From an uncultured virus (IMG/VR IMGVR_UViG_2049941000_000100) (taxonomy: Duplodnaviria > Heunggongvirae > Uroviricota > Caudoviricetes), in the IMG/VR virus record IMGVR_UViG_2049941000_000100: DNA of 45,512 nt. One strand, given 5' to 3'. Of this stretch, positions 19,766 through 45,512 are shown in pieces. The number at the start of each line of letters is the position of its first letter. Within the stretch, counting starts at the first letter, position 1. The notes under the pieces are model-generated. The model was not told where the DNA came from, ran no database searches, and worked only from the letters and a program-made list of their open reading frames with translations. Both the position numbers and the translations under genes were made by a program.

Positions 19766-21202
19766 TTGGAAAATAAAAAATCTTATTTAACGTAGGGAAA
19801 TAGACTTAACCTTAACTTTTCTATTCCCTATACGGATGAACGAACCGAATTCGTTTCTACCTATCTAAATTCCGATACGTTTTCCTATACTCCTCCTACT
19901 AACGCCGAACTAGAGACTATGGCAAATTATATATTATGGGGTAAATAGAGAGATACGGAAACTAACGTAGTTCAAGATAAGCTAATTGAAATCCCTACGC
20001 GCTCTAAAACATGGGATAGGTCCCAAAAAACCGAATCGCTCGACGCTTTATTAGCCCAACCGACTTTTAGCGAGCAATAGATAAATTCCCTAAACGGGAC
20101 TAAATATCGCTACCCTAAAGAAACGCTCTCGCGCGCATAGGTACGTAAAGAAACCGATTCCGATAAAAACCCTATATTTAACGACCTATGGAATCGTATA
20201 GACGAACTCGAACTCGAACTAAACTACTACGACCTTATCCACGGAAAGCGTAATACCGAACCTAGGTCCGAACTAGTAGAAAAATTCGACGAATGCGCTC
20301 AATAGACAATAAAAGAGCGCGCCGCAACTCTATCCCAATTTACCTATCTTAAAAAACGCCACTTATTAGTAGAACTAAGACGCGAATAGTTTACTCTAAG
20401 GGATACCGTAAAACCTACTATATTACCCCACTAGACGAACTCCGCTATCGATATATATAATAACGGGCCTATGGAACTGGATAGCGACGTACTTGTAAGT
20501 CCTATTGGATTAGTTTATAATACCGATTTAAGTAGGAAATTATTTAATACGTCCCGTTTTCCTATCCCTTCGGATTTTACATAGGACGAATTAGGTAGTC
20601 TACTTAAATCCTACTGGATGCGGAAGGCGGCCGTTGGGAAAAATTATATAGTTTTCGATTTTAGTAATACAGCCCACGTAGGAGAGGTATTTAGTTTATA
20701 CGACACGTTACGAGTAAGCGAGGACGACGTATTTTCTACTACCCCAGAATTTATAGATACATTATAGTACTATATTACTATGGCGGATTTAACTAACGTT
20801 TAGCGCGCAATTTTAGACCTTAAGCTAAAGCGCGTATCGAATGTAGATATAGCGGGGGGTATAAACGCGGAATACGGAAAATCGTATACGGTAAATTATA
20901 TAAGTACTATATTCCGCCAAAAAATTATACCGTCTATTTGCGCGGCGGCCTAGACTTAGGCGGAGATAATAGAGAATTTACCGTACCCCGAAAACTTTAA
21001 AAAGTGTAAGACGTGCGGCCGCGTACTACTTAGTACGCCTTAGAATTTCGTACGGAAAAGTAGGTCACCAGACGGTTTATCGACTTAGTGTAAGAAATGC
21101 GACCGAGAAGCCCGCGTAAAAGCAAAAGAAAAAATTAAGCCTTTATATTATACGTAGGAGAAGAACGATAACGATGGAAGAGATAAAGAATTAGGAGATT
21201 AA
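19766..21202 (+). CDS. ~478-aa protein with C-terminal HTH-like region and Cys4 finger (putative regulator); needs TAG=Gln
   Basis: GGAGG then TTG; frame interrupted only by TAG where read; LTNVQRAILDLK...SNVDIA...NYISTI; CKTCG...CKKC; absent from ORF track. Confidence 0.8.
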
Positions 21203-21437
21203 ATATCCATATCCCGAATTTTTAAAAGCCTTAGCTAAACTTAGACCGGAAGAGTTATTAGGACTCGCTAAGTTTATGGGAGTAAAACTTTTTAAAGACG
21301 ACGAAAAGGATGAGAAAGGAAATCCATTACCTTAGAGCGGAGAGTTTATAGTTTAGGGAATTATAGATAAGTATCCGACTTTAGGGCGTAAGGTTAGGAG
21401 ATAGATTTTAAAGATAGTTAAATAGGCAGGTAAATAA
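21174..21437 (+). CDS. Hypothetical protein (87 aa, TAG=Gln)
   Basis: AGGAG upstream, five in-frame TAG, TAA stop. Confidence 0.7.
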
Positions 21438-21670
21438 ATAGAAGTAGTTAAACGTAGATATTATACGCTGAGGGCGCGCGACGGACGAATTTATATAATC
21501 TTCGATAACACGCGGAACGGATGCCGCGCTATCTACGTTAAATCTACTTTTACTTTTTACTTTTATTTTTATATAGGACGTATAAATGCGCGCGTCCTAT
21601 AATTTTTATTATATTCTATGCGCGGCCGACCGCTACGCGGATTTATTATAAACGGCTGCTGGAGGGGGAT

Positions 21671-22511: not shown

Positions 22512-24776
22512 TGGCATAGAAACGAATAGTGCTACGTTCATTAAATAGAACCGAGTAGGACGTNNNNNNNNNNNNNNNNNNNNNNNNNNNNNNNNNNNNN
22601 NNNNNNNNNNNNNNNNNNNNNNNNNNNNNNNNNNNNNNNNNNNNNNNNNNNNNNNNNNNNNNNNNNNNNNNNNNNNNNNNNNNNNNNNNNNNNNNNNNNN
22701 NNNNNNNNNNNNNNNNNNNNNNNNNNNNNNNNNNNNNNNNNNNNNNNNNNNNNNNNNNNNNNNNNNNNNNNNNNNNNNNNNNNNNNNNNNNNNNNNNNNN
22801 NNNNNNNNNNNNNNNNNNNNNNNNNNNNNNNNNNNNNNNNNNNNNNNNNNNNNNNNNNNNNNNNNNNNNNNNNNNNNNNNNNNNNNNNACTTTTAAGGAA
22901 AGAAGTAATAGGTGGAGATTTAGTAGAAGTACCGGGTAATTACGGAAAGGACTATGTTACATTACGCTTTCGTAATGGTTCTTAGTTTGACGTAGTTGGC
23001 GCGCTTGAAAGTTCTTTGGGCGGACGTCGCCAAGGCGGTTTATTAGACGAGANNNNNNNNNNGGGAGTTGCGCTTACAGAACCATATCTCGAAAGTATCC
23101 AAAAGCTTTTAGAGAGATATATGAATTTTTTTACGGCTTATCCAGATTTATATTTGGATATAATTGCGCCGGTTGATGCGCAAATTAAACTATTCCCATA
23201 TTAGCGCGTGTTCTTGCGCGCGATAATGAGGTTTAAGAATGTTTATGTTACTGCGTGTCGTGCGTTCTCCAAATCTTTTATTACTATTCTCGGAATGGTA
23301 CTCTAGTGTATTTTTATGCCAGGTACTAAAAGATTTATATGCGCGCCGAACAAAAATTAGGCGGCGCAAATCGCAAAGGAAAAACTTACAGAGATATTTA
23401 GAGCTTGGCCGCTTTTAAGAAAAGAAGTAATAGGTGGAGACTTAGTAGAAGTACCGGGTAATTACGGAAAGGACTATGTTACATTGCGCTTTCGTAATGG
23501 TTCTTAGTTTGACGTTGTCGGCGCGTTAGAGAGTTCTTTGGGCGGACGTCGTCAAGGCGGTCTATTAGACGAGATTAAGTTACACGATGAGGAAATGGTT
23601 AATACAGTTGTACTTCCATTACTTAACGTATCCCGTCGCTTACCGGATGGAAGTGTAAATTATAAAGAGCCAAATCAGCAACAAATTTGTTGTACATCTG
23701 CTTGGCTTAAAACTAGTTTTGCCTATATAAAGCTTATTGATATGTTTGTGGATTCTATTATTAATCCTAAAAATACGTTTACTTTTGGATGCGATTATCG
23801 AGTTCCTTAGATGCATGGTCTCTTGGCGCGAGACTTCGTTAAAAAGCTTAAAATGAGTCCTTCATTTAATCAAGAGACTTTTGCGCGAGAGTATTTATCT
23901 ATTTGGACTGGTGGTGGCGAAGAATCATGGTTTGATTTTGATAAACTTCAAAAGTATAGAAAAATTAAAAATCCAGAAAAGCACGCATTTTTTAGAGCCG
24001 GTTCAAATTAGTATTACTTATTATCAGTGGACGTTGGACGACTCCATGATAGTACGATTGTATGCGTTTGGCGTGTAAACGTAATAAAAGATAAACATTA
24101 TTCTACATTAGTAAATCTTATTGTTTTAGGCCGTCAAGCTGAAACTAAAACTTTCCATCAATAGGCGATAGACCTTAAAAAGTTAATTAGAGATTTTGAC
24201 CCTAGAGAAGTCGTTATCGACTGCAATGGTTTAGGTATTGGTTTAGCGGATGAAATGATAAAAACCCAAATGGATGATAATGGAGAAGAGTTTGGACCAT
24301 TAGGTTTCTTTAATAATGATGATTATAAGAAAATTTAGCCGAAAGGTTGTCCAAATATTCTTTATTCTTTAAAAGCGAACGGGCCATTAAAATCTAAAAT
24401 TCATAGTAACGCGTATAGTCGTGTTAATAACGGAATGGTACGATTTCTTATAAAAGAACAAGAAGCGCGCAGTATGCTTTTAAGCACTAAGGTTGGATAG
24501 AAAATGAGTATTAAGGAACGAGTTGAAAGACTTATTCCTCACGAAATGACTACTAAGCTTTTTGAAGAGATGGCAAACTTGCGGCTTAAGAAAGGTTCTG
24601 GTATAGATATCGTATTAGAATAGATTAATACCCATTACCCTGATGACAAATATTCCGCTTTTGCTTATGGGTTATGGCGTATTAAAGAAATTGAAGAAGA
24701 GTCATTTAAGAAAAAACGTCGTTTTGACTCTTTTGGCAATCAAAGACAACTAGTCTTCTTTACGGAGGGAAGATAA
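22511..24776 (+). CDS. terL: Terminase large subunit (gapped, TAG=Gln)
   Basis: LFPY[Q], Walker A CRAFSKS, ICAPNKN[Q]A, Walker B LLDE, FAREY, nuclease SVDVG, IDCNGLG, DDKYSA. Confidence 0.92.
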
Positions 24777-26267
24777 ATGAGTGTAATTAAAGACTTAGGT
24801 GATTTAGCTTCCTTTTAGAAGATATAGGATGAAATGGTTGCAACTTCAGACACGTTTTGGAGCAATTCTTATTCTTATACTTCCGGATGGAATCAAAAAA
24901 TTAAAAACTACACAATTGAAGAAGTAGCCGCAATTATAAATTCAGGTTCAAGACTTTAGCAACAAATATTATCATAGAATTATTTTTATAAAGACGGTCT
25001 TTATCGTCGTATTATTACTTATTATGCAACGCTTTTAAAATATACTGGTCTTGTTATTCCCAATAGTGATAAGACTAAAAATCTCTCCACTCCAGGCATT
25101 ACAAAAAAGTATAATAAGGCGGTAGATTTCGTAGAAGATATAAAAACTTCTACTCTATTTACTGAAATAAGTTATAGGGTCTTAGTAAATGGTATTTACT
25201 ATGGTATTATTTTAAGTAGCGAAAAAAATAATTTTGTACTTATGGATTTACCTTTCTCATATTGCCGCACTCGTATGAAGGATTGGCTTGGGAACGATAT
25301 AATTGAGTTTAATGTTTCATACTTTGATAGTATATCAGATGATAGTATGAAAGAATATGCTTTGAAAGTATATCCTAAGGTAATTACTTCTTATTATCGG
25401 AAATGGGTAAAAGGTACAGTGTCGAAAAATGACCCTTGGGTTATTATTCCAGCGAAAATTGGGGTTTGTTTTTAGTTATTTGATGGACGTCCTTTCTTTT
25501 TAAGTGTTATCCCTGCGGCAATCAATTATGATAATGCGGTTGAGACAGAAAGAGAAAGAGATTTAGAAGAAATAAGAAAGATTATTGTTCAGAAAATTCC
25601 CCATCTTACTGATGGCGGCCTTTTGTTTGAGCCACTTGAGGCAGCGGAAATACATAAAGGCACCGTTGGGATGATGAGAGGAAACAAAAATGTTTCTGTT
25701 CTTACAACCTATGCGGACGTCGATGCGATTGTATCTAATACATCGAATGATTCGACGAAAAATAATTTAGAGAAGAATTTATAGAATGTTTATAGCGAAG
25801 CGGGGACTACTAGTTAGTTATTTGCGGCGACTGGAAATCTTTCTATTGAGACTTCTATTAAAAATGATACCGCGTTAATGATGGTATTAGGTAATAAATA
25901 TAGTAATTTTATTAGTTTTCTTTTAAATGATAAGTACGGAAATAGTTCTATTTCATTTAAGTATTCTATTTTAGATATTACATATTATAATGAGTCTACT
26001 TATATTTCTGATGCTCTTAAGCTCGCGCAGAATGGATATAGCTATATCTTGCCCGCATTAGCTATGGGAATTAGTCAAAGAGACTTAATTAATATTAAAG
26101 AAATAGAGAATAATGTATATAAATTAGGAGAATAGCTAATACCATTAAAATCTTCCTATACTTAGTCTTCTGCAGACGTCGGTCGTCCTCGTTTGCCGGA
26201 CGACTAGAAATCTGATAAAACTATAGCAAACGAAATTTCACTAGATGCTTAGGGAGGCTCTGAATAA
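24777..26267 (+). CDS. Portal protein (TAG=Gln)
   Basis: ~496 aa right after terL; C-terminal PLKSSYT[Q]S..GRP. Confidence 0.8.
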
Positions 26268-27588
26268 TGAAAGATAAACCTTGTTTTGAGTTCCCGGTAA
26301 CAATTTATAGTATTTTAGAACAAATTACTCCTACTCTGTCCAAGGCGCGCGTTCGGATTTTTTATAAGGGTGCGAATAGGAATGGTTCGTATATTACGGA
26401 TGAATTTGCGGAGAAATTAATTTCTACGCTTCCTTATGCGCCGGTTAAAGGAATTTATGACGCGGGCCAGGGTGATTACTTAGACCATGGGCCGGACAAT
26501 AACTATGGACGTATTTATGGTGTTGTTCCAGTAGATAATAATTTTGCTTGGGAAACCAATATAGACGAAGATGGCGTAGCACGCGTTTATGCGACTTGCG
26601 ATGTTTATCTTTATACTGCGATGTATAAAGAAGCCGGAGAAATTGTTGGCAAGTCTTAGTCTATGGAATTATATCCACCTTCTATAAGTGGTGAGTGGAT
26701 TATATATTAGGGTTCTCGGTATTTTAAATTTACTGATGGCGCCTTTTTTGGTTTACAAGTTCTTGGTGACGCGGTTGAGCCTTGTTTTGAAGGTGCTTCT
26801 TTCTTCACCGTTTAGAACGCAGAGGAAGGAATAAAGCAGTTAACGAAAATTATTGAGTAGTTAAACGCATATGTTTTAAAGTATTCCTATGGAGGAAAAT
26901 CAAAAATGGAATTGAATTTTAAAGTTTCTGATAGGGAAAAATTTGATGCCATCTGGACTTTATTAAATACACGTTATAATGAAGAGGGCGGCTGGGAAAT
27001 CTCTTATAGTATTTTAGATATTTGGGATGAATATGCCCTTGTGTATAATTATGAATATAATCGCTATGAGCGCGTTACCTATACTAAGAATGATGAAACT
27101 GATACAGTTGAGTTAGGAGACTTCTCTGTGCGGTTTATGATGGACCTTAGTGAGAGCGAAAAGGCCCTCGTTGATGGTCTGCGGACTGCGGCAGGGTCTT
27201 TTGANNNNNNNNNNAGTTAGAGAATAGTATCTCTACTTTGAATACAGAGAAAGAAACTACGGAAACAAATTTCGCTGAGTTAAGCGATAAGTTTTCTGTG
27301 TTAGAAGAAGAAGTTAATAGTTTAAGAGAGTATAAAGCTGCTTCCGAGAAGGAGAAAAAGTTAGCGGTTATTAAGTCTTATGAGTCTGTTCTTAATGAAG
27401 ATACTATTGAAGACTTTACAAAGAGAGTTGATGAATACGCTGATGTAATTAGTCTGGATAAGGATTTAGCTTATGCGCTGAAGAACTCTAATTTCTCTAT
27501 CTTTACGCAAACACCGGAATTTATTCCCATGAGTGATAATGGCTCGTAGGGCGATTTGCGTGAGCTTTTGACTCAATATAAAAAGTAA
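26267..27588 (+). CDS. Prohead protease fused to scaffold-like coiled coil (gapped, TAG=Gln)
   Basis: NRNGSYI, S[Q]SMEL, LG..VEPCFEGA; in frame through ATG 26906 to an acidic coiled-coil tail. Confidence 0.8.
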
Positions 27589-27608
27589 ATTCTTTGGAGG
27601 AATATAAA

Positions 27609-28157
27609 ATGGCTTTAACAAGATTAGTTATTGACGGTTATGGTCAGGTCGAATTAAACCAGGTTGCGTTCCGTCGGGATGGTCGTGTTGCTGCTCAGTG
27701 CAAGCCCAATGCCACTGATTTTGCTAGCAAGGCTCTCGAAAATGGTATGTTACTCGTTGTTGACGAAGTAAAGCGCGAAGTACGCCTTCCTGGCGCCACC
27801 GAAGCCGAGCCTGTTGCTCTGGTTTATAGCTCTGAGCATATGTATGACGAGAGAGCTCGTGCTCTTAAGAACTTCCAGAATGATATGTTCTTACCTCGTC
27901 TTGGTTACCTCGCCGTTGGTGATAGGTACACCACAAATTGTCTGTCCTATGATAGCACTGAATTTGCTACTGAGGCAGCCTTGAAGACCGCTATTGATGC
28001 GGCTGCTACTACAGCTGTTTATGCTGGTATTTCTACTGATGGTTCTCACAAGCTGAGTGCCACAAAGCCCTCTTACGGCCCCGTCATGAAGGTTCGTAAT
28101 GGTTTCACTATGCCTGATGGCACTTACGGTGTGCAGTTAGTCTGCGTATAGGCGTAA
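27609..28157 (+). CDS. Head decoration/cement-like protein
   Basis: Between scaffold and capsid; GYGQVELN, ENGM, TMPDG motifs; ends GTA-TAG-GCG-TAA. Confidence 0.75.
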
Positions 28158-28177
28158 TTTTGAAGGAGGATAAGAAT

Positions 28178-29224
28178 ATGGAACAGAAGATTTATGATTT
28201 AGCTCTTTATGCTGCTAAGCGTGAAGCTCCCGCCGATTTCTCCTATCAGAATGTTGAAGACGCTCTGCGTGGAGAACTTCGCAAGATGGCTGGTTCCGTT
28301 AACGAGTTTATGCGGAATCGCTATGATATCTATGATATTATAATTAAGACTGCTGATGCGGTCATTCCTGAGAAGACTATTGCTCTGCTTGGCCAGTTTG
28401 CTGAGATTCAGAGTGTACCCCAGGGTCAGAAAGTTATGTTTAAGACCCGCACTGGTAAGATGCGCGCCAAGAAGTTCCTGACTCAGGTTGGTCTCTCTGG
28501 TGTATATGAAGCGTTCCGTCTTGATGAGAAGACTTTCGAAATTAAGATGGGTGCTGTTGGTGGTGCGGCCACCATCGACTTCTGCCGCTATCTTGATGGC
28601 GCCGAAGATATGGCCGAGTTAATGGACATTATCGTTGAGGGTCTTAGCGATGCTATTTTCCTTGAGGTTCAGAAAGCCCTTATCGCTTCTCTGAATGTTA
28701 CTCGTCCTGTTGCCACAGTTGTTGACCAGAATGGTTTCGATACTGATAAGATGTTTAAGCTTTGCGCTCTTGCCAAGCAGTATGGCAATGGTGCCGTAAT
28801 CTTTGCGCCTTCTGAGTTCGTTGCTGCGATGGGTCCTGATGCTATCGTTCCCGTTCCCGCTTCTGGCAACTATGGTGGTGTCTATCATCCCCAGGATATT
28901 GATGCTATTCACAATACTGGCTATGTAAATCTGTTCAGAGGCACTCCTATTGTTCAGATTCCTCAGTCCTATGTTGATGAGACAGACACTAAGGTCTGGA
29001 TTGACCCATCTGTCGCTTACGTTCTCCCCACCGGTGGTGAGAAGGTCGTAAAGGTCGTTCTCGAGGGTGAGACCCAGATTAAGGACCATAACAACTATGA
29101 TAATTCTATGGAAATCCATGTTTGGAAGAAGATGGGATGCGCCATCCTCTCCTACAACAACTGGGGCATCTATAAGAACGAAGACATTAGCAATGCTAAC
29201 GTCTACAATCCCTATGGTATATAA
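28178..29224 (+). CDS. Major capsid protein
   Basis: 348 aa, AGGAGG RBS, biased high-expression codons, synteny, terminator after. Confidence 0.85.
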   Translation: MEQKIYDLALYAAKREAPADFSYQNVEDALRGELRKMAGSVNEFMRNRYDIYDIIIKTADAVIPEKTIALLGQFAEIQSVPQGQKVMFKTRTGKMRAKKFLTQVGLSGVYEAFRLDEKTFEIKMGAVGGAATIDFCRYLDGAEDMAELMDIIVEGLSDAIFLEVQKALIASLNVTRPVATVVDQNGFDTDKMFKLCALAKQYGNGAVIFAPSEFVAAMGPDAIVPVPASGNYGGVYHPQDIDAIHNTGYVNLFRGTPIVQIPQSYVDETDTKVWIDPSVAYVLPTGGEKVVKVVLEGETQIKDHNNYDNSMEIHVWKKMGCAILSYNNWGIYKNEDISNANVYNPYGI

Positions 29225-29239
29225 TTAAATTAAATAATT

Positions 29240-29305: not shown

Positions 29306-29800
29306 ATGGAAGGAAAAATTGTTATTACTAGTACAATTAATGCGCAGGTTGGTATTACATTACCAGACATTCATTTTAAGCACACTTGGGAAAAGCGTGG
29401 AGATAAATTCACAGTAAATCACGATATTTTTGAAGCCATGATGTACAACAATGGCGCGCGCAACATGTTTAAGAAAGGTATTCTTTATACAGAAAACATG
29501 GAAGTTAAGAAGGAATTTGGACTTGAGCCGGAAGATGCGGAAGAGCCCGTTAATATTATTGTATTAAACGAAGCGCAGATGAAGAGATATCTTAGTGTAA
29601 TGCCATTCCGTGATTTTAAGGAAGGTCTTGAAAAAGTCTCAGATGATTAGGTAGTGTTGCTCGCGCAGTATGCGATTACCAATAATATTTTGCCTAGTAT
29701 TGAAAAGGCTATGTATATTAAAGACCGCGTAAATATTAGTATTTTAAAAATTATCGAAGAAAATTAGAAAGACGCTGTAGAAGATAAAAAGGAGGCTTAA
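29306..29800 (+). CDS. Hypothetical virion-module protein (TAG=Gln)
   Basis: Reads through TAG 29648 and 29765 to a TAA abutting next gene. Confidence 0.75.
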
Positions 29801-29803
29801 TAT

Positions 29804-30232
29804 ATGACTCCGTATGATGTAGTGTACGATGCGTTCTTATCTAAGATATTAGATGATGAATGGGGTTATTGGACCGAGGAAGAGGTAAAATAGGACCTAC
29901 GTGCATTACTAGAAGGCGCGATACCTTGGTTTAAGTTTCCAAGAACTTCTTTTAGCCGAGGGGACTACGGCTTTGATGAAGATTTAAGTAACGAAGAAAT
30001 TTAGATTTTAGCTACTTATATGAAATGTGAGTGGCTGAATAGGACTATCTTAACTTGGGAAAACGTAAAGCCGCTCTATGAAGAGAGAGATTTTTCTTAG
30101 GCTAATCTTTTAGCTAAATTTAAGCAAATGCTTGAAGCAGAAGAGTATAAAGCCTTAAAATTAGAACGGATTTACTATCGTTCTTACGATAGTAAACCGT
30201 TTGACTTCCAATCTTTAGCGGGTGGGCAGTAA
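29804..30232 (+). CDS. Putative head-tail adaptor (TAG=Gln)
   Basis: MTPYDVVYDAFLSKI...L...EI[Q]ILA..M..EW...DFS[Q]ANLL; AGGAGG RBS; synteny. Confidence 0.7.
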
Positions 30233-30233
30233 T

Positions 30234-30464
30234 ATGGAAAAAGGTAATTTAATCGCAGAAGGTTATTATAATAAGTTAAAAAATAAATATTTTGGCTTAT
30301 TATGNNNNNNNNNNTCTATTGTTATTGAACTGTCTGGTTTCCCTGAAGAAGATAGAACTATAAATTGGATGGAATTAGTAAATAAGACTAATTCACTTCG
30401 TTATCTAGATTACGAATATTTTCGTAAGACCATATTTGAGTGTATGGGATTACTTTCAAAATAA
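30234..30464 (+). CDS. Hypothetical protein (gapped)
   Basis: ORF between neck genes, ends FRKTIFECMGLLSK. Confidence 0.65.
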   Translation: MEKGNLIAEGYYNKLKNKYFGLLXXXXSIVIELSGFPEEDRTINWMELVNKTNSLRYLDYEYFRKTIFECMGLLSK

Positions 30465-30467
30465 TAG

Positions 30468-31220
30468 ATGAGTTATTTTGAAGATATATATTTAAAAAGG
30501 TTAAATAGATATGGTTTAAATTACTAGTGACCCTTGGGTTATNNNNNNNNNNNNNNNNNNNNNTAGACTTAGCGTGAGAAAATGTTTGAATAGTTATTAC
30601 TAAAGAGTGTGTATAGGATTGACTTTGAATATAATGATGGGGTTGAGCCTGGGCTACTTGAAAGGTATAAACAAGATGAAACTGAAACTCGCGCGTATCT
30701 GTTAACTAGAGTAAGTCTTAACATTCCTAATGGAACTATTCTCTATCTTCCAAATAAAGATTAGGAATTAATTCCTTGGATGATTTATTGGTTAGAGAAT
30801 ATAAAAGCAAGTGGATATAATCGTTATGTCCTTTTAAAAATGACTCATACGATTACTTGGTAGAGAGAAGGAACTACATATTCTACTTTAGCTTATTTTT
30901 ATGGCTAGGAAGATAATATGTTGAAAGATGAAATTCGTTCTCGTAGTCGTATGGATACTATATACTCTGAAAATCTTAAACTTAGTTTTATGGTTATTCC
31001 TACAAATGGAGATTTAAGGAAAGATGATTATTTTGAAATCGGTGAAGGTAAGTTATTAGAAGCTTATAGAGTTACTGGTTATGATAGATAGTCTACTCCT
31101 GGGGTTGAATATGTAAGTATTGACCCAATTTATATTTATGACCATTCAGAGCCGCCCACTCCATAGCCAGGAGAGGATATGGATTAGTATTATTGGTTAT
31201 AGAAAGGTGGTGAGAGTTAA
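30468..31220 (+). CDS. Putative neck/head-closure protein (gapped, TAG=Gln)
   Basis: Frame open 30564-31220 apart from TAG; 5' part disturbed next to gap. Confidence 0.65.
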
Positions 31221-31711
31221 TGGGAGTAAGAAATTGCGCGGATATTGGCGATAATTTAATGAAGATAATGAAAAGATTATTAGCCAATCAAAATCTTTTA
31301 AAACTTTTATATTATACTGATAAAGACCCATTAAATGGTGAGGATATAACAGACGAACAAATTTAGGATGAAATATTTGAGAAGTTTGTTAAAATTATTC
31401 CAAGAGTAGGTCCGAAAGATACAGCGCACTCTGTAGTTACTATCCGTGTTACTCGTGCGAGATAGGATTCGAATAATAATGAATTTAAAGATGTACGTAT
31501 TAATATAGAGGTTTTTGTGCCACTTACATAGTGGATTATAAAAGATGTACAATTGCGGCCGTTTGCTATTTTAGGAGAAATACAAAGTTCTTTAAATGGA
31601 AAAACTATAAATGGTTTAGGAAAATTAACTGGTGGGGATTTTGATTTAAATTTCTTAACAGAAGAAATATCTGCATATGAGCAGTATTTTTATTTAACTT
31701 CTTATGATTGA
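31220..31711 (+). CDS. Putative tail-completion/terminator protein (TAG=Gln)
   Basis: NQNLLKLLYY...LRPFAI...GLG; TAATG overlap; TGA stop. Confidence 0.7.
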
Positions 31712-34175: not shown

Positions 34176-37100
34176 ATGAATTAGAGGTATAGTATAACTA
34201 TTGATGTAGGGGCAGATATTTCAAAAGCTCGCGCAGCAATGGGAGACCTATAGAAAATTTTTAATACATAGAATTTAGGCGCTGGTCAATCTAATAGACT
34301 TGCTTCTATGTTTACTGATTTATCTAAAGCATTAGATGAATTAGAAAATAAAAGTGGGAAAACTTTTTCTTCTTTGGGAGAAATAAGAGGTATAGATAAA
34401 ACAAAGGATAAGGTTAGTTCTTTAATTGATGATATTGCTCGTGAATTTAATAAATTAGAAGGAATGGGGGATACAGAACTCGGTAAAAATTTTAAAGGAC
34501 TGGCAGACAATTTAGCTAAAGCTGGAGAAGCTTTTAAAACTTATGAAAGTTCAATGTCAAAAATTAAAAATAGGCAAAATGAACTTAGTAAGTATATAGA
34601 AAAGACTACTAAAGAATATGAAAAATAGAAATAGGTTTAGAAAGCATATAGAGATTTTAGAAAAGACTTACCAGAAGAAGCTAGAGGAAAATAGTAGGCA
34701 GGAGTGAGAGCCTATCTTAATAATTAGTTAGACATCGCTTAGAAAGAAAATAAAAAAAGATAGGAAGAATTAAATGATTATATTAATTCAAAAGGTTTAG
34801 GTAATGATGTAATCACTAAAACCGGAAGTGTAAGAAAAAATCAAGAATATAGTGATGATGAAACTTTAAATAAGTTAGCTTCTAATGCGAAAGAAGCTCA
34901 AAGTGCCTTAGATGGATGTACAAAAAGNNNNNNNNNNTTAAACGATTTTAATAATATCACAAAAAATTTAAAATCTGAAAGTGAATTTAAAAAGATTGGA
35001 GATAGTTTAAAATAGGCTCAAGAAGAATTAGCTAATTTAACTAGCGGGAAATTAAGTGAAGATGCTTTTAATAATTTAAAAACTTCTTTGAGTAGTGTTT
35101 TTGGAGAAGAATTATTTAAAGATATTCAAAATTCTGAAAATGCAGTTGATTAGTTTAAAGAAAAAATAAATTCTATTTCAGCAGATAAATTAAATTCGTT
35201 AAAACAATAGTTTCCAGAAATTATTTCCTTGTTAGAAAAAATGGGAACTGCCGCGCGAGGCGCTGGTTAGAAAATTGACGAAGGTTTAGGAACTGCCACA
35301 AAAGCAGAATAGATGGGAAAAGAAATAGATGTTCTTGGTTCTCGTCTTAAATACTTTTTCTCTCTTGCTGGTGGATTTAATTTAATGCGGCGAGCAATTC
35401 GTTCTGCAGTTACTACAACTAAAGAATTAGATGCAGTAATGACATAGACCGCAGTGGTTTCTGAATATACGGTTGGTGATATGTGGAAAATGTTACCGCA
35501 GTATAGTAAAGAAGCTAAGAGATTAGGTACTGTTATAAAAGATGTATACGGCGCGCAGACCTTATATGTGCAACAAGGTCTTAATATGAATGATGCCATG
35601 GATTTAGGTGTTGAAACCTTAAAGATGGCGCGAGTTGCGGGAATTGGTGCAGAAGAAGCAACTAATTCCATGACTGCAGCACTTCGTGGTTTTAACATGG
35701 AATTAAATGAGTCTAGTGCTGTTCGTATTAATGATGTTTATTCAAAACTCGCGCAAAATACAGCATCTAACGTACAAGAAATTTCAACCGCTATGACGAA
35801 GACTGCGGCGCTTGCTAATAGTGCTAATATGTCCTTTGAAAATACTGCGGCTTTCTTGGCAACGATTATAGAGTCTACTCGTGAAGGTGCAGAAACTGCT
35901 GGTACTGCGGTAAAAACGGTTATTGCACGTTTTACAGAAGTTAAGAAACTTTATGATGAAAATGAATTAACTGGAACTGATGAAGAAGGTCAAGAAATTG
36001 ACGTAAATAAGATTTCTAAAGCCTTGAGAACTGCTGGTATTAATATGAATGATTTCTTTACCGGCGCGAAAGGACTAGATGAAATATTTATGGAACTAGG
36101 TAGTAAGTGGGATAGCCTTACTACTGTACAACAGCGTTATATTGCTACTATGGCTGCTGGTAGTCGTCAATAGTCTCGTTTCTTAGCTTTAATGCAAAAT
36201 TATAGCCGTACTGTTGAATTAACATAGATGGCGTATAATAGCGCGGGGTCTGGGCAAGAGTAGTTTGAGAAAACACTTGATTCATTAGAAGCCAAAATTA
36301 ATAGATTTAAAGATACTTGGGATACCTTTATTATGGGTATTGCTAATAGTGATTTAATTAAAGGTGCAATTGATTTTGGTACTGATTTTTTAGAAATATT
36401 AAATAATATAGTTAATGCAATATCTGGTAGTAATGGATTAATAAAGAGGATCACTTCTATCGGGTTGGCGGTANNNNNNNNNNTTGGCGGTAGGTGGATT
36501 TAAAATAGCTAGAAGCGTTCTTGGTAATGGAGGACTTTTAGGTTCTATTATATCTGGTAAAGGTTTAAAAGTTGGAGAGCAATATGGCAAGACTTTTACG
36601 AAAGGATTAACATATGCTTTAAGTAAATAGGGCCGCTAGGAAGGATATGGTTTGGGTAACTGGGCATATTAGGCCTTTAAAGTTAATAAGACCGGCTATT
36701 TGGATGGAATTACTAAAGAGAATGCAGCTAGTATAGAATAGGCTTATAAAGATTATGATTAGAGGATAAATGAAATAAATCTTAAACGACAAGAATAGAA
36801 GTATTCGGATACGTTAAGTTAGTAGAAATTTGATAGAGATACTATTCAAGAAAGAAAAAGTTTTCAAGAAAAAACTGGATTAAATGAAAAATAGGCATAG
36901 ACCGTTATAGATAATAAAGGAGTCTAGTAGACTGTTAAAGATTATAACGCACTTGGCAATGCTGCATTGCTTGCTGGTACTGCAATTTTCACTGTAACCG
37001 CAGCGCTATAGTCAAGCGGTGCGATTGGTGAAAAAACTGGAGGCATTTTTAAGAGTCTTGGCGCTGGCTTAATGGCAATGGGCGGCGCGGTAAAAATTAT

Positions 37101-40100
37101 TACTGCGATAGGCGGTGCTTTTGCTTCCTGGGCTGGACCAATAGGTATTGCTATAGGATTAATTACTGCACTTTATGGTGTTTATGATGCTCTTAATGAA
37201 TCTCCCACGGAAAAATTTGATAGATTAAGTGAGGAATCTGAAAAGATTAGTTAGACCGTAGAAAAATTAGAAGGTAAAATAGGAGATTTAGAAAGTAAAT
37301 TTTCTAGTATTACAGAATAGGAAGATGCTTTCTCAGATTTAGTTTTAGGTACTGAAGAATGGGATACTGCGGTTTAGAATCTTAATCAATCTATTTTAGA
37401 GCTTGTTCGTTTGTATCCAGAATTAGCGGATGCAGTAGAATTTGTTGGTGGAAGATGGCAATTAGATATAGATAAATATTAGAAGTTTTTAGATGATTAG
37501 AAAGATTTTTTATTAAGAACTTAGTTGATTGAAAGCGCCGGTGAATTAATTACCGCACAGGCAGAATATGAAAAAGATACTACGCATGGTGTCGGAAAGA
37601 AAATTAGAGAAGGAACATATTTAGAAAATTTTAAAGATNNNNNNNNNNATAGTCTATGGGTATGGACTTGATATTAATGATTAGCAAATTGAAGTAATAA
37701 ATAAAAATCTCGCACTTGGTACATATGATAAAATAATTGAAGAAATTTATAATGCTTTATTAGAAGGTAGCTTGTCTTTAACTGATAAATTAACGACTAA
37801 TTTACAAATGATAGGTACAAAACTTGGTAATTCTTCATTTGGTACTTTAGGTAGTGAGCAAGTTATAGCTTAGATTTTTACATAGGATAGAGAAGCTTTC
37901 GAAACAGCTAGAAAATATAACCGTGCAGCGGAAAAAGCTTAGGCAGTCACTCGTTCATAGGCTATAATTAATGGTTACCAATAGACTACTGCGTCAAAAG
38001 ACACATAGTATTCTTAGTTTTTTTCAGAGTATGCTGGGGCTTTATATGATAGTTTTATAACAACGTTATCTGAATAGGCTATTGCTGAAGGACAAAAAGA
38101 AATAGAGCAAGATTATCTTTCTAAACATAAAGTTACTTTAAAAGATGCATTAATAGCAGAGTTTGGAGAAATTGATGACACTTGGTATGAAGAATATATA
38201 AAAAATCAAGTTGCGATAAATAGTTTTATAGAAAAAATTAACGAAAGTTATAATAATTTTATACAAAGCGCTGAAAAAACTCCAGAATTGACTTCTTTTT
38301 TATCCGAAGGCTTTAAAGGTCTTAAAGTTGATACAACACCAGAAAAATTTGTAGAGTAGTTAANNNNNNNNNNNNNNNNNNNNNNNNNNNNNNNNNNNNN
38401 NNNNNNNNNNNNNNNNNNNNNNNNNNNNNNNNNNNNNNNNNNNNNNNNNNNNNNNNNNNNNNNNNNNNNNNNNNNNNNNNNNNNNNNNNNNNNNNNNNNN
38501 NNNNNNNNNNNNNNNNNNNNNNNNNNNNNNNNNNNNNNNNNNNNNNNNNNNNNNNNNNNNNNNNNNNNNNNNNNNNNNNNNNNNNNNNNNNNNNTCAACT
38601 GGATGGGAAGACTTTTATGGAAAAATTAATGCAAATCAATATAAAAGCTTACTTCCTACAAAAGATTTGACTTATGGCCAATTAGAAGGATTAAATACTT
38701 TATATAGTGGCGTAAAAATTCGTGGTGGTAATCTCGAAGAAACTAGTAAAATTATTAATGAAGGTATTTTATCACAAGCTAAAACTGATAATTTACAAGA
38801 TGTATTAAATTTAATTACAGGAACGGATTTTTCTTCTATCACTAATATAGACAATTATTTACGACNNNNNNNNNNTTTAATGAATATGTTGTTAATACAA
38901 TTTAGAATGAGTTAAAGAGTGTAAGCGAATCTGTTGAGGCTGGACAAAAAGTTAGAGATGGTTTAAATGATGTTTAGAAAACTCTTATAGAAACTATTTT
39001 AACGTCTACAGAAGAAGAATTTAAAAATATTGAGCCGGGAAAATTAGATGAAGCTTTAAGCTCTTTAGGTTTAGCTCCTTCTGAATATACTACTAATGAA
39101 GAAAAACGAGCTGCATTAGAATATGCATATAGCCCATATGGAGTCTAGGGTGCTAATTTAGCAACTGCCGAAGAGCTCTAGTAGTAGTTAATTAATGAAC
39201 AAACTCGTGGATATAATTAGATTATTTCTGCGCAAACATTGTTAGATTAGATTTCAGCCGGCGATGAGGCTGCAAGGTAGGTATTAGAAAGTAGGGTTAA
39301 AGAACTTGGTACTGGCGAAGAGTACATGGTATCGAAAGATGTTGTTGAGCTTGGAAAGGAATATGAAGATGTTCTTAATGCTCTCGCAATAGATTCTAAT
39401 AAAGCAGTAAAAAGTTTTGATAATTTAACTTAGGTTTATAAAGAAAATGCAGATGCACTTAAAGTAGAGAATAAAGGTACTAGAGAATACGGTATAGCTT
39501 TAGCAAACTTAACAAAAAGTGTTAAAGTTGCTTTTGGAAATAATGATAAAATAACTGAAGATTTTGTTGATAATAATTTAGATTTATTTAAAGACTATGC
39601 GGATGGTGTAGAAGGTGCTGAAGATAGAATTCGTCAAGCTATGATGGACGAAGGAATAGCAAATGTAGCCATTCAAAATTTAGGTGATTTGCAAAAAGCA
39701 ATTGATAGTATTGATGGGTCGCAATTAACTATTAATGGAACTGCTGATTGTAGTCAGGCTTTTTCAGAATTAGCCAATGTGGTTGGTAGTGCAGAAGAAG
39801 CTGCTGCGGCGATGGAATCTTTAGGATATTCAGTTACTTGGGAAGCAGCTGGTACAATAGTTGATGAGCATGGTCAAACTTATACGAATTATCGGGCTGT
39901 TGTAAGCGATAATGTTGGAAAAGCTGTAAATCGCAATCGCGCGGGAGGCGGTGGCGGTGGAGGCGGTGGAAGTAAAGAGTTCAAAAATGACTTCGATAAA
40001 TATTATAATCAAGTCGAAGACATTAACGAACTTGAACGCCAACGTAATCTCCTCGAAAAAGACTACGACCAACTTCTAAAATCTGAATCTAAATCTGGCA

Positions 40101-41956
40101 AAGATATATATGATAATCTTTCAAAGCAACTTGCACTTTTACGCGAGCGCGCGAGTCTAACCGCAGACCTTGCAGAGAAGCGTAAACAACAAATTATAGA
40201 TACAACTCAAGATGAAGAGTATAAAGACGTCGCCAAATACGCTTGGTGGAATGAAGCAGACCTAACTATTGAAATTGATTGGGATGCAATTAATCAAATT
40301 AAAGACTCTGAACAAGGCGATTTAGTAAAAGAATACGTTAAAAAGCTTGAAGATTTTTAGTCTAAATATGATGATATGATTGAGAATCTTGAAGATATAG
40401 AGTCTACTATTCAAGAGATTAATGAACGTGGAAAAGAAGAATATACTTCTCTTGAAGATCGTACGCGCGATGCATTAATAAAACAAATTCAAGATAAAGT
40501 CGATGAACTTTCTGATGTTAATGAATCTATAAATGATACAAATTAGAAGTTATTTGATTCAATAACTTAGACTTTAGAACTTCAACGTCAAGAACGCACA
40601 AATGCAGAAACCGAAAATGAATTAACCGATAAAGAAAAGCGTCTTGCTTATTTACAATAGGATTCTTCTAATGCGAATCAAGTAGAAATTGCAAAACTTC
40701 AAAAAGAAATTGATGACGCGCGGCAAGATTATACAGATAATTTAATCGACCAAAAAATTAGTGAACTTCAACGTCAAAATGATGAAGCGGCGAATCAACG
40801 GCAACAATAGATAGAGTTAATGTAGCGGTCTCTTGATTGGGAAGAGAAATCTGGCGCATTTTGGGATGAAGTTTATCGTTTAATTAGTTTAGGTACTGAT
40901 GCGACTGGCGCACTTATACATTAGAGTGATTTAGAAAATGTACTTAAAGGCAGCGAAGGTTGGGAAGCATTATCTGAAGAAGGTAAGATGAACTGGCTTA
41001 AAACTTTAGAGGATTAGGTTGCACAAGGATTTTCTTATTTAGAGATGGGTCGTCAATTAGAAGATATTGGTACTAAAGCAGGTTCTTCTATTACTTTTAC
41101 TAATGCTAATGGAGAAAAATTAACTGGTACAGTAGATAAAGAAGGTAATGTGGTAGTTAAAAATAGTGATGGTTCTACTACAACTTATAAAGATGTATTT
41201 TAGGACTATCATGGAGCTTTCAGAACTTTTGAGAATTCTGGAGAGACTAAAATAGCGCCTAGTTCTACTACTTCTACTACTAAATCAACAACAACCGCTG
41301 GGACTGGAAATAAAAACAATAAAGTTCCGGATAATAAGGGTTGGCATTATAATGAAACTCACCATTGGCATGAGTATACAGATGGCACAAAATACGGTGA
41401 AGAACCACATAATTTTAAGCAAATGCCGGATAGCTCAGTTAAGGTTTGTACAGAATGTAAATATGTGCATCAAAAAAGTAATGCTATTACACAAGTAGAT
41501 TTAGGTCCAGCCAATATTTAGACCACCACTACTGGTAAGGGACGGCTTACTACTCCTACAGTAGTAGCTAATGCTTCGAATACTACTTCTACAAATGAAC
41601 AAACATAGAGCGACATTATTTCTCTTTTAAAGAATAAAAAGATTAAAGCTTATGCTTCTGGTGGCCTTAATACCTATTCTGGTATAGCTTGGCTTGATGG
41701 AACACGCTCTAATCCTGAACTTGTTCTTAATGCGCGTGATACCGAAAACTTTATTGAGTTAAAAGATACTCTTGCCTCTATTAAATCTAATGGTGGTCTT
41801 AGTCTTACTGGTGGAGATAACTACTACGATATTAAAGTCCAAGTAGATTCTCTTGGAAGCGACTACGATGTAGATAAAGCTATTGACCGTATTAAGACTC
41901 GAATCGCGCAAGAAAATGCGTATCGTAATGTAAATGCATTATCTCGTCTTCGATAA
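34176..41956 (+). CDS. Tail tape measure protein (several gaps, many TAG=Gln)
   Basis: TP901-type core at 35.4-36.3 kb (ELDAVMT, INDVYSKLA, AGTAVKTVIARF), poly-Gly linker, C-terminal YASGG...LDGT..PELVL. Confidence 0.9.
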
Positions 41957-42062: not shown

Positions 42063-43042
42063 ATGCCTATTAAAGGTGATTTTATATCTTTTACATATAA
42101 TAGTGTCCATTCTACCGATTTGGGAATAGTACATGTAAGTTCATCTGATAGATATGTAGATGCGCTTCTTCCTACATTCCAAGATAAGACCGTTTAGGCT
42201 ACTGGTAGTGATGGCACTTATTTTTTTGGAAGCTACTATACTCAAAGACCTATAACACTTAATATTGCGTTTGATAGTATGACAGAGACTTAGCTTAGAC
42301 GCACGCGGGCTCTATTTGGAGATAAGTAGTCTCACCCATTAGTTTTTGACGAAGAACCATATAAAGTATATTATGCAAAAGTTACTGGTACACCGTAGTA
42401 TAATTATATTTGTTTTAATAATTATGAGGATGATAGTAATATAAATCCACGTATTTACAAGGGGGAAGGGACAATTAATTTTATTTGTTATGATCCTTTC
42501 GCGCATACACCCAATAAATGTAAATATTTAGATAATTATGTGGTAAATGGGACTGATACTCCTTGGTATAAATATGATAATAAAAATGAATGGAATTTAA
42601 GTGCAAATTTATTATCTTCTAAAGGGAATTACGATACTTTTTCTAATCGTAGTTTTATGCTTTATAATCCTGGTGACGTAGAAGCAGATTTTAAATTAAT
42701 AGTACCGATTAGTGCGATTTTTAGTGGTATAAAAATCGATGATGGGAGAAATGATTTAGAAAGTCATACTTTAAAATTTAATGCTAAACCATTTTCTGTA
42801 CCAGTAAAAGGTGAGGACACACATCTATTATTTAATTCTAAAACTAATTTAGTTGAAGGATTAAAAATAGATGGCGCAATTGTTACTCGTACTGGAAATT
42901 TATATAATGAAAAGATTGGAGATGGACACTGGTTTCGTATTCCACTTAATTAGGAGAATAAAACTTNNNNNNNNNNTATTTTACATTAAATGATTATATT
43001 GGTGGAGATCCCACTTTAGAATATGATTATCTTTACTTCTAA
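42063..43042 (+). CDS. Distal tail protein (Dit)-like (TAG=Gln)
   Basis: FTYNSVHSTDLGI, GSDGTYF, LVFDEEPYKVYYAK, FICYDPFA, YNPGDV; follows TMP. Confidence 0.8.
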
Positions 43043-43057
43043 TACGAGGTAAAAACT

Positions 43058-45512
43058 ATGAATATAATTAAAAAACCTTATGAAATAAGTATTTGGAAAG
43101 ATTTACTAATGTATGTAGGTACTCCGGAGTCTGGAAAGACTTCGCCTACTTCCAATTTAGGTGATTTATCTAGTGTAGATTATCAATATTATGATGAAGA
43201 GCGACTTGCGGTAATTGGGTCCGATGTTATGACTTCTCCGGCGCGAGTAGTAAATCCTGTATTTAAAAAGAATATTAATGGTACCGAAACTCTTACTTTT
43301 GACATGTATTATTAGTATGAAGATGTTGAAAGTGGGGGAATAATTAGAAATCCTTTAATTGATTTAGTAATTGACGAAAGAAAAGTCAAACTTTTTTACG
43401 AAAATGAATGGCATGATTTTATTGTAAAAAAAGACGACGAAAAGGGAAGAGACTATAAATATTCTTACACTTGTACTGGACTCGCGGCGAATGAATTAGG
43501 TAAGACTGGTTTTAATATTGAATTAGATACAGACTTAGAAAATAATATGGGGACTGTGACGGAGCTTGGAAAAGAGGTTTTGCGCGGTTCTGATTGGCAA
43601 CTTAGAGATGAAGATTAGGAAATAATTAAACAGACTAATGAAGAAGCTTTATATTCATTAGTATTAACTAGTTCAATAACAAACGCTAAATTATTAAATG
43701 ACGATAGTGACTTTGATACAATAAACGAGGGGCGGCGTATATATGCATATTATACCCCTTACGCAAATCAAGAAAAGGATTATTTCTAGTTTATATATGT
43801 AGATGGGGATACTGGTACTGCTATACCGGATTTATTAGAAGATGGAGTTACTATAAATTGTAATGATACTAGAACATATGATTTATATATTTCTAATGTT
43901 ACCTGGACTAACGATAGACCTAATTTTGCAACTGGGACACCTAGTGTCGCGCAATATAGAGGTCTGCGTTATGTAAGAAAGTAGCTTAGTGCTTACGATC
44001 CAGTATTAAAACAAACCGTATTAAAGTATACCCGTAATAATACTGAATACTATGGTTATACTACTACAGACTATATAGATTCAACTACTGTCCAAAATTA
44101 TATATATAATTCTACTAATTTCTCTGGTACTTCTTACTGGGGAATCTACGGGGATAGTAATAATAAGTCAATTAGTGCGGAAGTTTTCCCTAGTGTAAAA
44201 AATAATACTAATGTGACACGTGCAGGATATTTAGTTGTTTAGTTTGGAAATACTAACGCGCGCCTTGTAAATGATGGAATAATTTAGAATTATTCAAANN
44301 NNNNNNNNNNNNNNNNNNNNNNNNNNNNNNNNNNNNNNNNNNNNNNNNNNNNNNNNNNNNNNNNNNNNNNNNNNNNNNNNNNNNNNNNNNNNNNNNNNNN
44401 NNNNNNNNNNNNNNNNNNNNNNNNNNNNNNNNNNNNNNNNNNNNNNNNNNNNNNNNNNNNNNNNNNNNNNNNNNNNNNNNNNNNNNNNNNNNNNNNNNNN
44501 NNNNNNNNNNNNNNNNNNNNNNNNNNNNNNNNNNNNNNNNNNNNGAAGAAAAATTTAATGCAAATAAAACTAAATATTATTATAAAAGTGGTAATAATTA
44601 TATACATTGTACTGCAAGTTCTACTTATAATAGTTCTATAGAATATTATATTTCTTCAATCGAGCATTTATATTTTAATTCTACGAATAGCAGCACAGTT
44701 GTNNNNNNNNNNNNNNNNNNNNNNNNNNNNNNNNNNNNNNNNNNNNNNNNNNNNNNNNNNNNNNNNNNNNNNNNNNNNNNNNNNNNNNNNNNNNNNNNNN
44801 NNNNNNNNNNNNNNNNNNNNNNNNNNNNTGGTAAGAATAATTAGCCAATCGCACCAGATGATCCAGTAGAAAATTTGCCGGACGTGCGTATTGAAACTAA
44901 ATATCACTTTTATGATCCAACAAAAAATATAGGCAAACTTTCTGAAGAAGACTATGTTTTTAGCGAATCAAATCCTTCTTTATATGAGCCTTTATTTGGT
45001 AGTGATGACAATAAATTTGAAAAAATTCGTAGCATAACTGCGAAAGAATCAAATAGATTTAATTTACTTCAGGAATTAAGCGAAACATTCGAGTGCTGGG
45101 TTAAATTTAAAATAGAGCATGATGCGAATGGCCACATTATAACAGAACCATTTGATTATTATAATTTACTTAATCTTGCGGAAGGAGCTAGTGTAACGGG
45201 CTATTATATTTATGATTGGTATAGTAGGAATTATATACATCCTTCTGAAACTACCGCTAAAAAAGGACAGAAGTATTATGAACAAGTTTCGCGTCGGCGT
45301 CAAGTTAAAAAGGTAATATTTTATAAAGAGATACTTGTTGTCAATTACGCCGGATTTAAGTATGGTATTAATTTAAAAGATAATAATCGTACTTTAGATA
45401 GTGAATAGATTGTTACTAAAATTATTGTAAAAGATAATACTTGTGAATAGGCTGAGAATGGTTTCTGTTCTATTGCTCGCGCGCAAGATAATCCGATAAA
45501 AGAAAATTTTGT
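43058..45512 (+). CDS. Large tail-tip/baseplate hub protein, gapped and 3'-truncated (TAG=Gln)
   Basis: KPYEISIW, NINGTETLTF, ESNRFNLLQELSETFECW, GFKYGINL; follows Dit. Confidence 0.75.

Follow-up and report, generated by a model that had tools for sequence, protein, structure and literature searches.

Comparative evidence for TAG as a glutamine codon in most late genes of a siphovirus-type phage from the cattle gut

Gene content and relatives of the window

The window, by which we mean the whole stretch of 45,512 nucleotides that was analysed, is a 45-kb piece of a siphovirus-type phage of roughly 110–140 kb from the cattle gut, belonging to an SPbeta/phAss-1-like family whose near-complete relatives measure 108–140 kb. 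A PHROG 419 gene (2967..3236, plus strand) is followed by a block of early genes on the minus strand (6062..19282), in which 25 small genes picked by hand end in TAA or TGA and 15 perfect TTGACA-TATAAT promoters precede the genes. One minus-strand gene (10037–10201) has a TAG five codons before its end and may terminate there; homologues do not settle which.

The late operon, on the plus strand, opens with a sigma-factor-like regulator (19766..21202), whose match to PHROG 5767 'sigma factor' (E 2.5e-14) is restricted to residues 293–447 and for which an NCBIfam search gave no useful match. It is preceded by a sigma-70-like promoter (19681..19709, plus strand) that agrees with the consensus at 11 of 12 positions; a promoter scoring 10–12 of 12 likewise lies 50–154 bp upstream in all nine relatives (of 12) with an intact call for this gene, whether they are recoded or standard. 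Apparent in-frame TGA codons in the relatives' copies proved to be natural gene ends, except for one in L037.

Then come the virion genes, all on the plus strand. The terminase large subunit (TerL, 23064..24776, PHROG 9), whose start falls at a scaffold gap, has 10 in-frame TAG codons and shows 36–41% identity to the TerL of phAss-1 and Geobacillus virus E3. The portal gene (24777..26267, PHROG 2739, E 3.5e-61) has 11 and adjoins, at 26267, a prohead protease/scaffold-like gene (26267..27588) that is split by a gap bridged in 4/4 runs; both of its parts match PHROG 3313, the sequenced in-frame parts hold 5 TAG codons, and its position suggests a protease. Position likewise suggests that 27609..28157 encodes a head decoration protein; its sole TAG (28149) is the second-last codon. 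The YonB-like major capsid gene (28178..29224; ESM Atlas feature score 0.99, PF27364) encodes glutamine by 14 CAG, no CAA and no TAG, and the YomU-like major tail tube gene (32452..33324; ESM Atlas 0.97, PF27173) by 7 CAG, one CAA and no TAG. Between these two lie head-completion and neck-region genes (29306..32433) that are rich in TAG apart from the gene at 29306. The tape measure gene (34176..41956, PHROG 4211, E 2.8e-47), in pieces separated by scaffold gaps, holds at least 70 in-frame TAG codons, including TAG-TAG-TAG at 39179; in the closest whole relative (G001) it is one gene of 2,694 amino acids with 80. The window closes with a distal tail protein gene (Dit; PHROG 33, E 3.7e-20) and the first part of a large tail/baseplate gene, both with TAG (42063..45512). 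At least two 10-N runs are bridged by 95 and 78 letters in other strains and are therefore scaffold gaps. An Rfam search of the window found no family.

Contigs of four studies follow the window region with few differences. A search of viral contigs with gene 2215 gave no match, and a metagenome search with gene 1429 returned relatives with identities up to 86%, of which none is the same phage; a tRNA with anticodon CUA lies at 6 of the 80 loci from this search. In RNA runs, just 10–18% of the words of the window were present. Of 80 relatives, 32 are recoded, and in-frame TAG is absent from 47; the standard-code relatives keep the same gene order and the same promoter, without TAG, and a quick TerL tree implies at least three to six code changes. 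A phage-borne permease is matched at 60–70% mostly by Clostridia records (best 80 of 526 matches), and Clostridia are probably the host.

Residues at TAG and coding density

The initial annotation had read TAG as glutamine from 19766 to 45512 and described the virion genes as broken by TAG only. Reading TAG as sense restores the terminase, portal, tape measure and Dit genes, with PHROG matches that span the TAG codons, and raises the part of the window covered by frames of 300 codons or more from 0.045 to 0.402, compared with 0.045 for TGA and 0.211 for TAA as sense (codons containing N were counted as non-stop). At shorter cut-offs TAA outscores TAG, because TAA is the commonest stop. The frames are, however, also interrupted or shifted by 29 N runs (1,916 N), and the proposed range holds in part: TAG is used within it and also outside it, in gene 2967–3236. 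Nor does TAG occur throughout the essential virion genes; it is found in most late genes, but the major capsid and tail tube genes are free of it.

All seven positions that had been singled out carry TAG. At five of them glutamine is the residue in most aligned loci of standard-code relatives: at 23202 in 38/38 and at 23358 in 39/39 loci (both in TerL), at 26163 in 17/26 (portal), at 26657 in 38/40 (protease-like gene) and at 30098 in 28/28 (gene 29804), these five being in frame. The TAG at 3012, within a conserved Gln-Trp-Thr-Gly motif, is opposite a glutamine of the closest whole relative when aligned by eye, and the triplet at 39179 shares the reading frame of the tape measure gene's C-terminal part. 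Across the window, glutamine is the residue in 20 of 28 conserved TAG columns of the standard-code relatives as against 52 of 1,723 columns overall; eight of the 28 have another residue, among them Glu (3) and Lys (1). It fills 38.5% of all 2,467 cells in TAG columns, with Glu next at 9.1%, close to its share in control columns at CAA (45.2% of 1,365) and CAG (47.1% of 1,049) and far from that at GAG (5.3%). A majority residue other than glutamine occurs in 45/78 TAG columns and, similarly, in 22/40 CAA controls. For the TAG codons of recoded relatives, 243 of 280 conserved columns have glutamine.

In close relatives TAG is exchanged mainly with CAA and CAG, and the TAG at 28149 is CAG in four other strains (4/4 runs, four studies), although strain differences make a weak test, one of the 40 differences listed of 837 touching a TAG. 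The base following TAG shows no clear preference relative to that following CAA. TAG was also considered as a true stop in recoded genomes, where it comes first at 41 conserved gene ends; nine query ORFs out of these were examined, and eight proved to be antisense shadows of longer genes. Comparison with relatives thus confirms TAG as the predicted glutamine codon (code 15) of most late genes. Pyrrolysine would be expected at few, Lys-like positions, and does not fit 171 TAG codons in 24 late spans with Lys at 1/28 conserved columns. The broader alternative, that TAG encodes pyrrolysine, Glu, Lys, Tyr or Trp, or that the TAG codons of a decayed genome are misassemblies or nonsense mutations, could draw on the gappy assembly, on the label 'Pyl' that ARAGORN gives the relatives' CUA tRNAs from their anticodon, and on the long variable arm of two of these. 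Yet the conserved columns favour glutamine, the loci of the two long-arm-tRNA genomes likewise point to glutamine (13/14 and 6/6), and the habit is common to 32 relatives and matched by the contigs of four studies; we regard this reading as largely refuted and exceedingly improbable.

Distribution of TAG among early and late genes

In the low-copy late genes of the window, TAG makes up 171 of 314 glutamine codons (counted over 24 late spans), in line with a simple model of mutation bias (expected fraction 0.537, p = 0.82). The high-copy genes (capsid, decoration, tail tube) have 1/28 where 0.515 is expected (p = 6e-8), and the 25 early genes have 1/52. Recoded codons are therewith concentrated late (164/304 vs 1/52, Fisher p = 1.5e-14), and the early genes can be read in both codes. 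The recoded relatives repeat this, with 882 of 2,750 codons against 1,277 expected in low-copy genes and 9 of 488 against 214 expected in high-copy genes; in six recoded genomes TAG is absent from the glutamine codons of Pol III alpha (0/252), GyrA (0/143), DnaB (0/133) and major capsid (0/88). Code 15 thus acts gene by gene rather than genome-wide, early and high-copy virion genes reading alike in both codes. The avoidance in high-copy genes is partly ordinary codon bias, since standard-code relatives favour CAG there as well (70% in the capsid gene).

None of 58 gene families is clearly above the mutation-bias expectation, the highest observed/expected ratio being 1.08, and TAG therefore looks tolerated rather than favoured. 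The model is a crude one. For CAG its prediction is too high (about 39, with 19 seen) and for Leu TTA too low (238, with 312 seen), but it fits TTG:CTA:CTG.

Decoding of TAG and comparison with known systems

A search for the decoder found no tRNA within the window; among relatives, a tRNA-CUA is present in five of six recoded genomes, including the closest whole relative, and in none of six standard ones. The release factor and glutaminyl-tRNA synthetase that the initial annotation had suggested looking for did not appear: an RF-1 domain is absent from 24/24 records of relatives, and 15/15 records have no Glu/Gln-tRNA synthetase. Nor did a protein track the code among 1,112 clusters (best 4 recoded/1 standard and 3/0), the ORF caller behind them being crude enough to fragment the sigma-like gene in 3/12 genomes, so that small or mis-called genes can escape. 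The decoder is most likely a phage-encoded tRNA-CUA outside the window, as in the relatives, charged by the host, which we infer to use code 11. Synteny with G001 predicts its gene some 15–20 kb upstream of position 1. With this tRNA present, C-to-T changes would turn CAG into TAG, and TAG in low-copy late genes would drift up to the mutation-bias level. Selection would purge it from two sets of genes: those used before the tRNA accumulates (early genes with host promoters, replication genes), and those whose products are required by the hundred (capsid, decoration, tail tube), where any remaining termination or slowness of decoding would be costliest; the pattern of purging is observed and its cause is suggested by it. 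We consider this account, with TAG read as glutamine in late genes through a phage tRNA-CUA, highly probable.

Code 15 in such gut phages is already published. The phAss-1 group (proposed Phassvirus and a wider group; Babkin et al., 2023, PMC10607447; 'Caudoviricetes code 15 clade' at NCBI) likewise comprises SPbeta-like gut siphoviruses with TAG as glutamine in TerL, portal and tape measure genes, a tRNA-CUA without synthetase, and recoded and standard members side by side. In Data S1 (PMC10607447) no TAG is marked in its genes for the major capsid protein and Pol III alpha, and by our count the phAss-1 capsid gene has 0 TAG and 15 CAG. The window phage differs in its gut (cattle vs human), in having 10 rather than 2 TAG codons in the TerL match, and in having no Ig-domain or flagellin-like genes in the interval from portal to protease; protein identity to phAss-1 is 36.4% for TerL and 33.4% for the gene annotated as major capsid protein. 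It therefore stands outside the proposed genus Phassvirus, whose hallmarks are about 80–86% nucleotide identity to phAss-1 and, following the portal gene, a large capsid gene with an Ig domain. The recoded gut phages of Borges et al. (bioRxiv 10.1101/2021.08.26.457843) also have TAG in structural but not replication genes, a code that varies among close relatives, and suppressor tRNAs without synthetase. Their Agate lineage (~127 kb) includes a cattle example and may include our phage, with which the 108–140 kb of near-complete relatives and the mixed codes would agree. Two TAG-recoded Agate phages carry RF2, a factor present in none of 24 records here. In code-15 crAss-like phages (Peters et al., 2022, PMC9523058; Yutin et al., 2021, PMC7886860; Pfennig et al., bioRxiv 10.1101/2022.06.29.495998) early genes are again readable in both codes; these belong to an unrelated phage order with Bacteroidota hosts and are recoded in gene blocks, whereas here individual genes free of TAG sit within one recoded operon. 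For them TAG as glutamine is known from proteomics (the same three sources and bioRxiv 10.64898/2026.08.21.746148), for the window phage from sequence comparison. In a 2026 preprint a crAss-like major capsid gene is reported to lack recoded codons, and translational selection is suggested (bioRxiv 10.64898/2026.08.21.746148).

Borges et al. propose selection for recoded codons; here no gene family is clearly above mutation bias. Under their model TAG would be a positively selected timer; the gate in this phage family would be the sigma-like gene (19766), which a host-type promoter would drive but which could be translated only once tRNA-CUA had built up. This gene carries 3–15 TAG codons in 20/20 recoded loci behind a sigma-70-like promoter, and so differs from the other host-promoter genes (1/52), and a lysis-gene bias has been described in crAss-like and TGA-recoded Agate phages (bioRxiv 10.1101/2021.08.26.457843). 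Against it, the 15 TAG among 22 glutamine codons of the window gene, the earliest at codon 10, are not above the mutation-bias prediction (p = 0.20), promoter and gene order are shared by TAG-free standard-code relatives, and the lysis-like candidates of the closest whole relative, weakly annotated, have TAG in 1/13 glutamine codons (lysis genes lie outside the window and are weakly identified in relatives). We think a timer rather unlikely; late proteins would as a consequence be delayed until the tRNA has built up, but nothing in the data calls for selection of TAG to that end.

With its 70 or more TAG codons, the tape measure gene calls for almost complete readthrough: at 70–80 in one gene, roughly 93–96% per codon must be read through for a full-length yield of 0.5–5%. 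Such efficiency, and relatives without release factor or synthetase, might suggest a host that itself decodes TAG as glutamine, with no code switch at infection. Strict avoidance of TAG in early and replication genes, a tRNA-CUA that tracks the code and a TerL tree on which the code changed at least three to six times fit a standard-code host instead, and Clostridia are not known to read TAG as glutamine; we hold a recoding host to be very improbable. More tentatively, and with considerable doubt, we propose that the switch is a single small, mobile tRNA-CUA of varied origin without a companion protein, flipped at least three to six times, and that TAG fills low-copy late genes to mutational equilibrium as mostly neutral passengers rather than a selected timer, the lone tRNA outcompeting host RF1, or RF1 being silenced by a phage factor also present in standard-code relatives.

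For annotation, the virion module collapses under code 11, and the genome is to be read with code 15. A family with recoded and standard sister lineages in the same gene order allows one to ask whether TAG is favoured or merely tolerated, and the codon counts favour tolerance, with TAG purged from genes that are early, high-copy or involved in replication. A numerical lower limit on readthrough efficiency comes from the tape measure gene.

Reading of TAG in the late operon

Open frames of at least 300 codons cover 0.045 of the window under code 11 and 0.402 when TAG is read as sense, with N codons not treated as stops (45,512 bases, GC 34.8%, 29 N runs amounting to 1,916 N). The same cover is 0.045 with TGA and 0.211 with TAA as sense, the latter being ahead at shorter frame cut-offs because TAA is the most frequent stop. 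With TAG as sense, 19766-45512 forms a single packed operon on the plus strand. The initial annotation had described tightly packed genes, and all seven TAG positions quoted there are present in the sequence. Its further statement that essential virion genes are broken only by TAG stands in part: reading through restores them, and the breaks that remain lie at N runs. Two 10-N runs are bridged in other strains by 95 and 78 letters and are therefore scaffold gaps. A duplicate of an internal terminase segment directly before a 10-N gap (23016-23051) is probably an assembly artefact at a scaffold join. A PHROGs scan of 34 window proteins names the sigma-factor-like gene, terminase, portal, tape measure and Dit, and ESM Atlas, through its feature search only, assigns a YonB-like major capsid protein (28178-29224, plus strand) and a YomU-like tail tube (32452-33324, plus strand); the latter also matches PHROG 2729, as does an adjoining second tail-tube paralogue (33395-34115, plus strand).

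A search of IMG/VR with the large terminase (TerL) confirmed 117 relatives. The analysis used the best 80: 16 window genes, with TAG as X, were aligned to six-frame translations of these 80 loci and the actual codons were read. In-frame TAG is absent from 47 loci ("standard"), occurs 8-66 times in 32 ("recoded") and once in L037, at a gene end. At window-TAG columns, Gln fills 38.5% of 2,467 cells of the 47 standard loci, with Glu as runner-up (9.1%), and the Gln share in control columns of the standard loci is 45.2% for CAA, 47.1% for CAG and 5.3% for GAG. The majority residue is Gln in 33 of 78 window-TAG columns and another in 45, and is also other than Gln at 22 of 40 CAA columns. Where columns are at least 80% conserved, Gln stands opposite 20 of 28 window TAGs, vs. 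an overall background of 52/1,723; the same holds for 243 of the 280 TAGs that recoded relatives have in such columns. Among 40 of 837 strain differences listed, one alone touches a TAG (28149), which is CAG in 4/4 contigs from four studies. TAG recoding in the window is real, and the initial annotation interpreted it correctly as Gln.

The TAG at 28149 is the second-last codon of the decoration gene and its only TAG, and gene 2967 has a TAG at 3231, its end reading TAG-TAA; under either code the protein would be nearly full length. A single internal TGA in the sigma-like gene of the standard-code L037, in a column that is Gly in 41/49 loci, is a mutation or sequencing error.

Relatives, early genes and decoding machinery

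The window TerL is 41% identical to that of Geobacillus virus E3 and 36% to that of phAss-1, a code-15 gut phage. Near-complete relatives measure 108-140 kb, and the closest whole relative, G001 (TerL identity 83%), has the gene order of the window: uracil permease, small plus-strand genes, inverted early block, sigma-like gene, head, tail. The uracil/xanthine permease (3-737, PF00860) is therefore phage-borne, and its occurrence at the same place in G001 rules out that the window is a prophage edge. Its nearest cellular matches, among 80 of 526 listed, are mostly Clostridia, a weak hint at where the host might be sought. Fourteen DNA runs, mostly recorded as bovine gut, contain half or more of the sampled words, and two of them may be where the window DNA comes from. 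In a quick TerL tree of 65 distinct rows, drawn from 75 whose cover reached 70% (6 loci omitted), the recoded label requires 6 changes, 3 of them forced by starred branches, against ∼21 in shuffles, and the window falls into a starred group with four loci (L001-L004), all recoded.

The minus-strand block (6062-19282) consists of small genes, each with a near-perfect sigma-70 promoter upstream; 15 sites match the consensus perfectly and the total is 81, vs. 39.6 in shuffles, and it is on these sites that we regard the block as early. It includes paralogue sets (11362/12848/17521, a near-identical pair plus one; 6062/18833, with 10634 similar by eye; 13860/14104, with 7008 similar by eye), several of its gene families are also present in relatives, and it looks like a host-takeover region.

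No tRNA genes were found within the 45-kb window. Among near-complete relatives (ARAGORN, relaxed threshold), tRNA-CUA was called in 5 of 6 recoded vs. 0 of 6 standard genomes, the exception being G002, an 89%-complete genome whose tRNA cluster lies at a contig end. No RF-1 domain was detected in 24 records of relatives and no Glu/Gln-tRNA synthetase in 15 (positive controls run for both), and the best code-tracking proteins among 1,112 clusters, from crude gene calls, reached only 4 recoded/1 standard or 3/0. Taken together, these results make a host-charged tRNA-CUA the best-supported decoder, which for the window genome we infer from its relatives. Genes for tRNA-CUA of 88-91 nt occur at L093:19240-19327 and G011:95354-95443 and in L159, L164 and L166. 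By eye, no relationship is apparent among the five CUA tRNAs, which suggests that they arose separately. Those of G004 and G011 have a long variable arm, and TAG in both genomes still aligns with Gln. Weak calls with anticodons TTA and TCA (G011:97379-97452 and G016:25402-25469; relaxed ARAGORN) are probably degenerate.

Distribution of TAG and its mutational expectation

TAG/CAA/CAG counts in the window are 164/121/19 in 23 spans of low-copy late genes (those other than capsid, decoration and tail tube), 1/1/26 in the latter three, 1/20/31 in 25 minus-strand genes picked by hand and 2/6/7 in eight left-hand genes. The tail-tube paralogues, one TAG-free and CAG-rich (32452-33324) and the other containing TAG (33395-34115), are a natural control inside one operon. 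Recoded loci carry TAG in TerL (32/32), portal (31/31) and the sigma-like gene (20/20), and in capsid (2/22), tube (2/15) and decoration genes (1/27). Across six recoded genomes TAG makes up none of the Gln codons of Pol III alpha (0/252), GyrA (0/143), DnaB (0/133), GyrB (0/112), capsid (0/88) or ligase (0/69). Capsid genes of standard relatives likewise prefer CAG (70%). The replication genes of G001 favour CAA (Pol III: 41 CAA, 6 CAG), so a preference for CAG does not explain why they avoid TAG.

For each gene set, an expected TAG share was derived from the set's own two-fold sites, using their T:C and A:G ratios. The model is rough, under-predicting Leu TTA and over-predicting CAG, with four-fold sites yielding 0.60; it fits Leu TTG:CTA:CTG at 0.48:0.39:0.13 against 0.54:0.34:0.12. 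Low-copy late genes of the window (24 spans) have TAG at 171 of 314 Gln codons (expected 0.537, p = 0.82) and high-copy genes at 1 of 28 (expected 0.515, p = 6e-8); pooled recoded loci, near-copies included, give 882/2,750 vs. 1,277 expected and 9/488 vs. 214 expected, respectively. Over the 24 spans, uncorrected, three small genes exceed expectation (p 0.014-0.025) and the C-terminal piece of the tape measure falls below it (p 0.002). Among the 58 families found in at least four recoded genomes, the top observed/expected ratio is 1.08. We favour drift of TAG in low-copy late genes combined with purging elsewhere. It is possible that TAG instead acts as a timer under selection, for which the sigma-like gene would be the gate. 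The weakly annotated lysis-gene candidates of G001 are poor in TAG; the window contains no lysis genes.

Within the tape measure, 39326-40225 (C-terminal part) has TAG at 1 of 14 Gln codons; late CAA-rich stretches comparable in codon use occur in G002, G004, G005 and G011 and not in G001. G011 also carries a pair of very long genes (roughly 3,300-3,600 codons), one (23426-33277) with a pattern like the tape measure and one (10905-21626) poorer in TAG.

Stop-codon recoding, its late-gene bias and code changes between close relatives were described by Borges et al. (bioRxiv 10.1101/2021.08.26.457843), TAG as Gln in the related phAss-1 group by Babkin et al. (PMC10607447), and proteomic proof of recoding in crAss-like phages by Peters et al. 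(PMC9523058) (see also Yutin et al., PMC7886860; Pfennig et al., 10.1101/2022.06.29.495998); a TAG-free major capsid gene was noted in a 2026 preprint (10.64898/2026.08.21.746148). A mutation-equilibrium test of recoded codons was not found in the mostly open-access literature searched, and the words "neutral" and "drift" are absent from the main text of Borges et al. The present phages offer a clean family for asking whether recoded TAG is selected. The number of TAGs in the tape measure gene, at least 70 in its sequenced parts, also sets a floor on suppression efficiency: if each TAG is independent, a per-codon readthrough of 0.93-0.96 would be needed for an assumed full-length yield of 0.5-5%.
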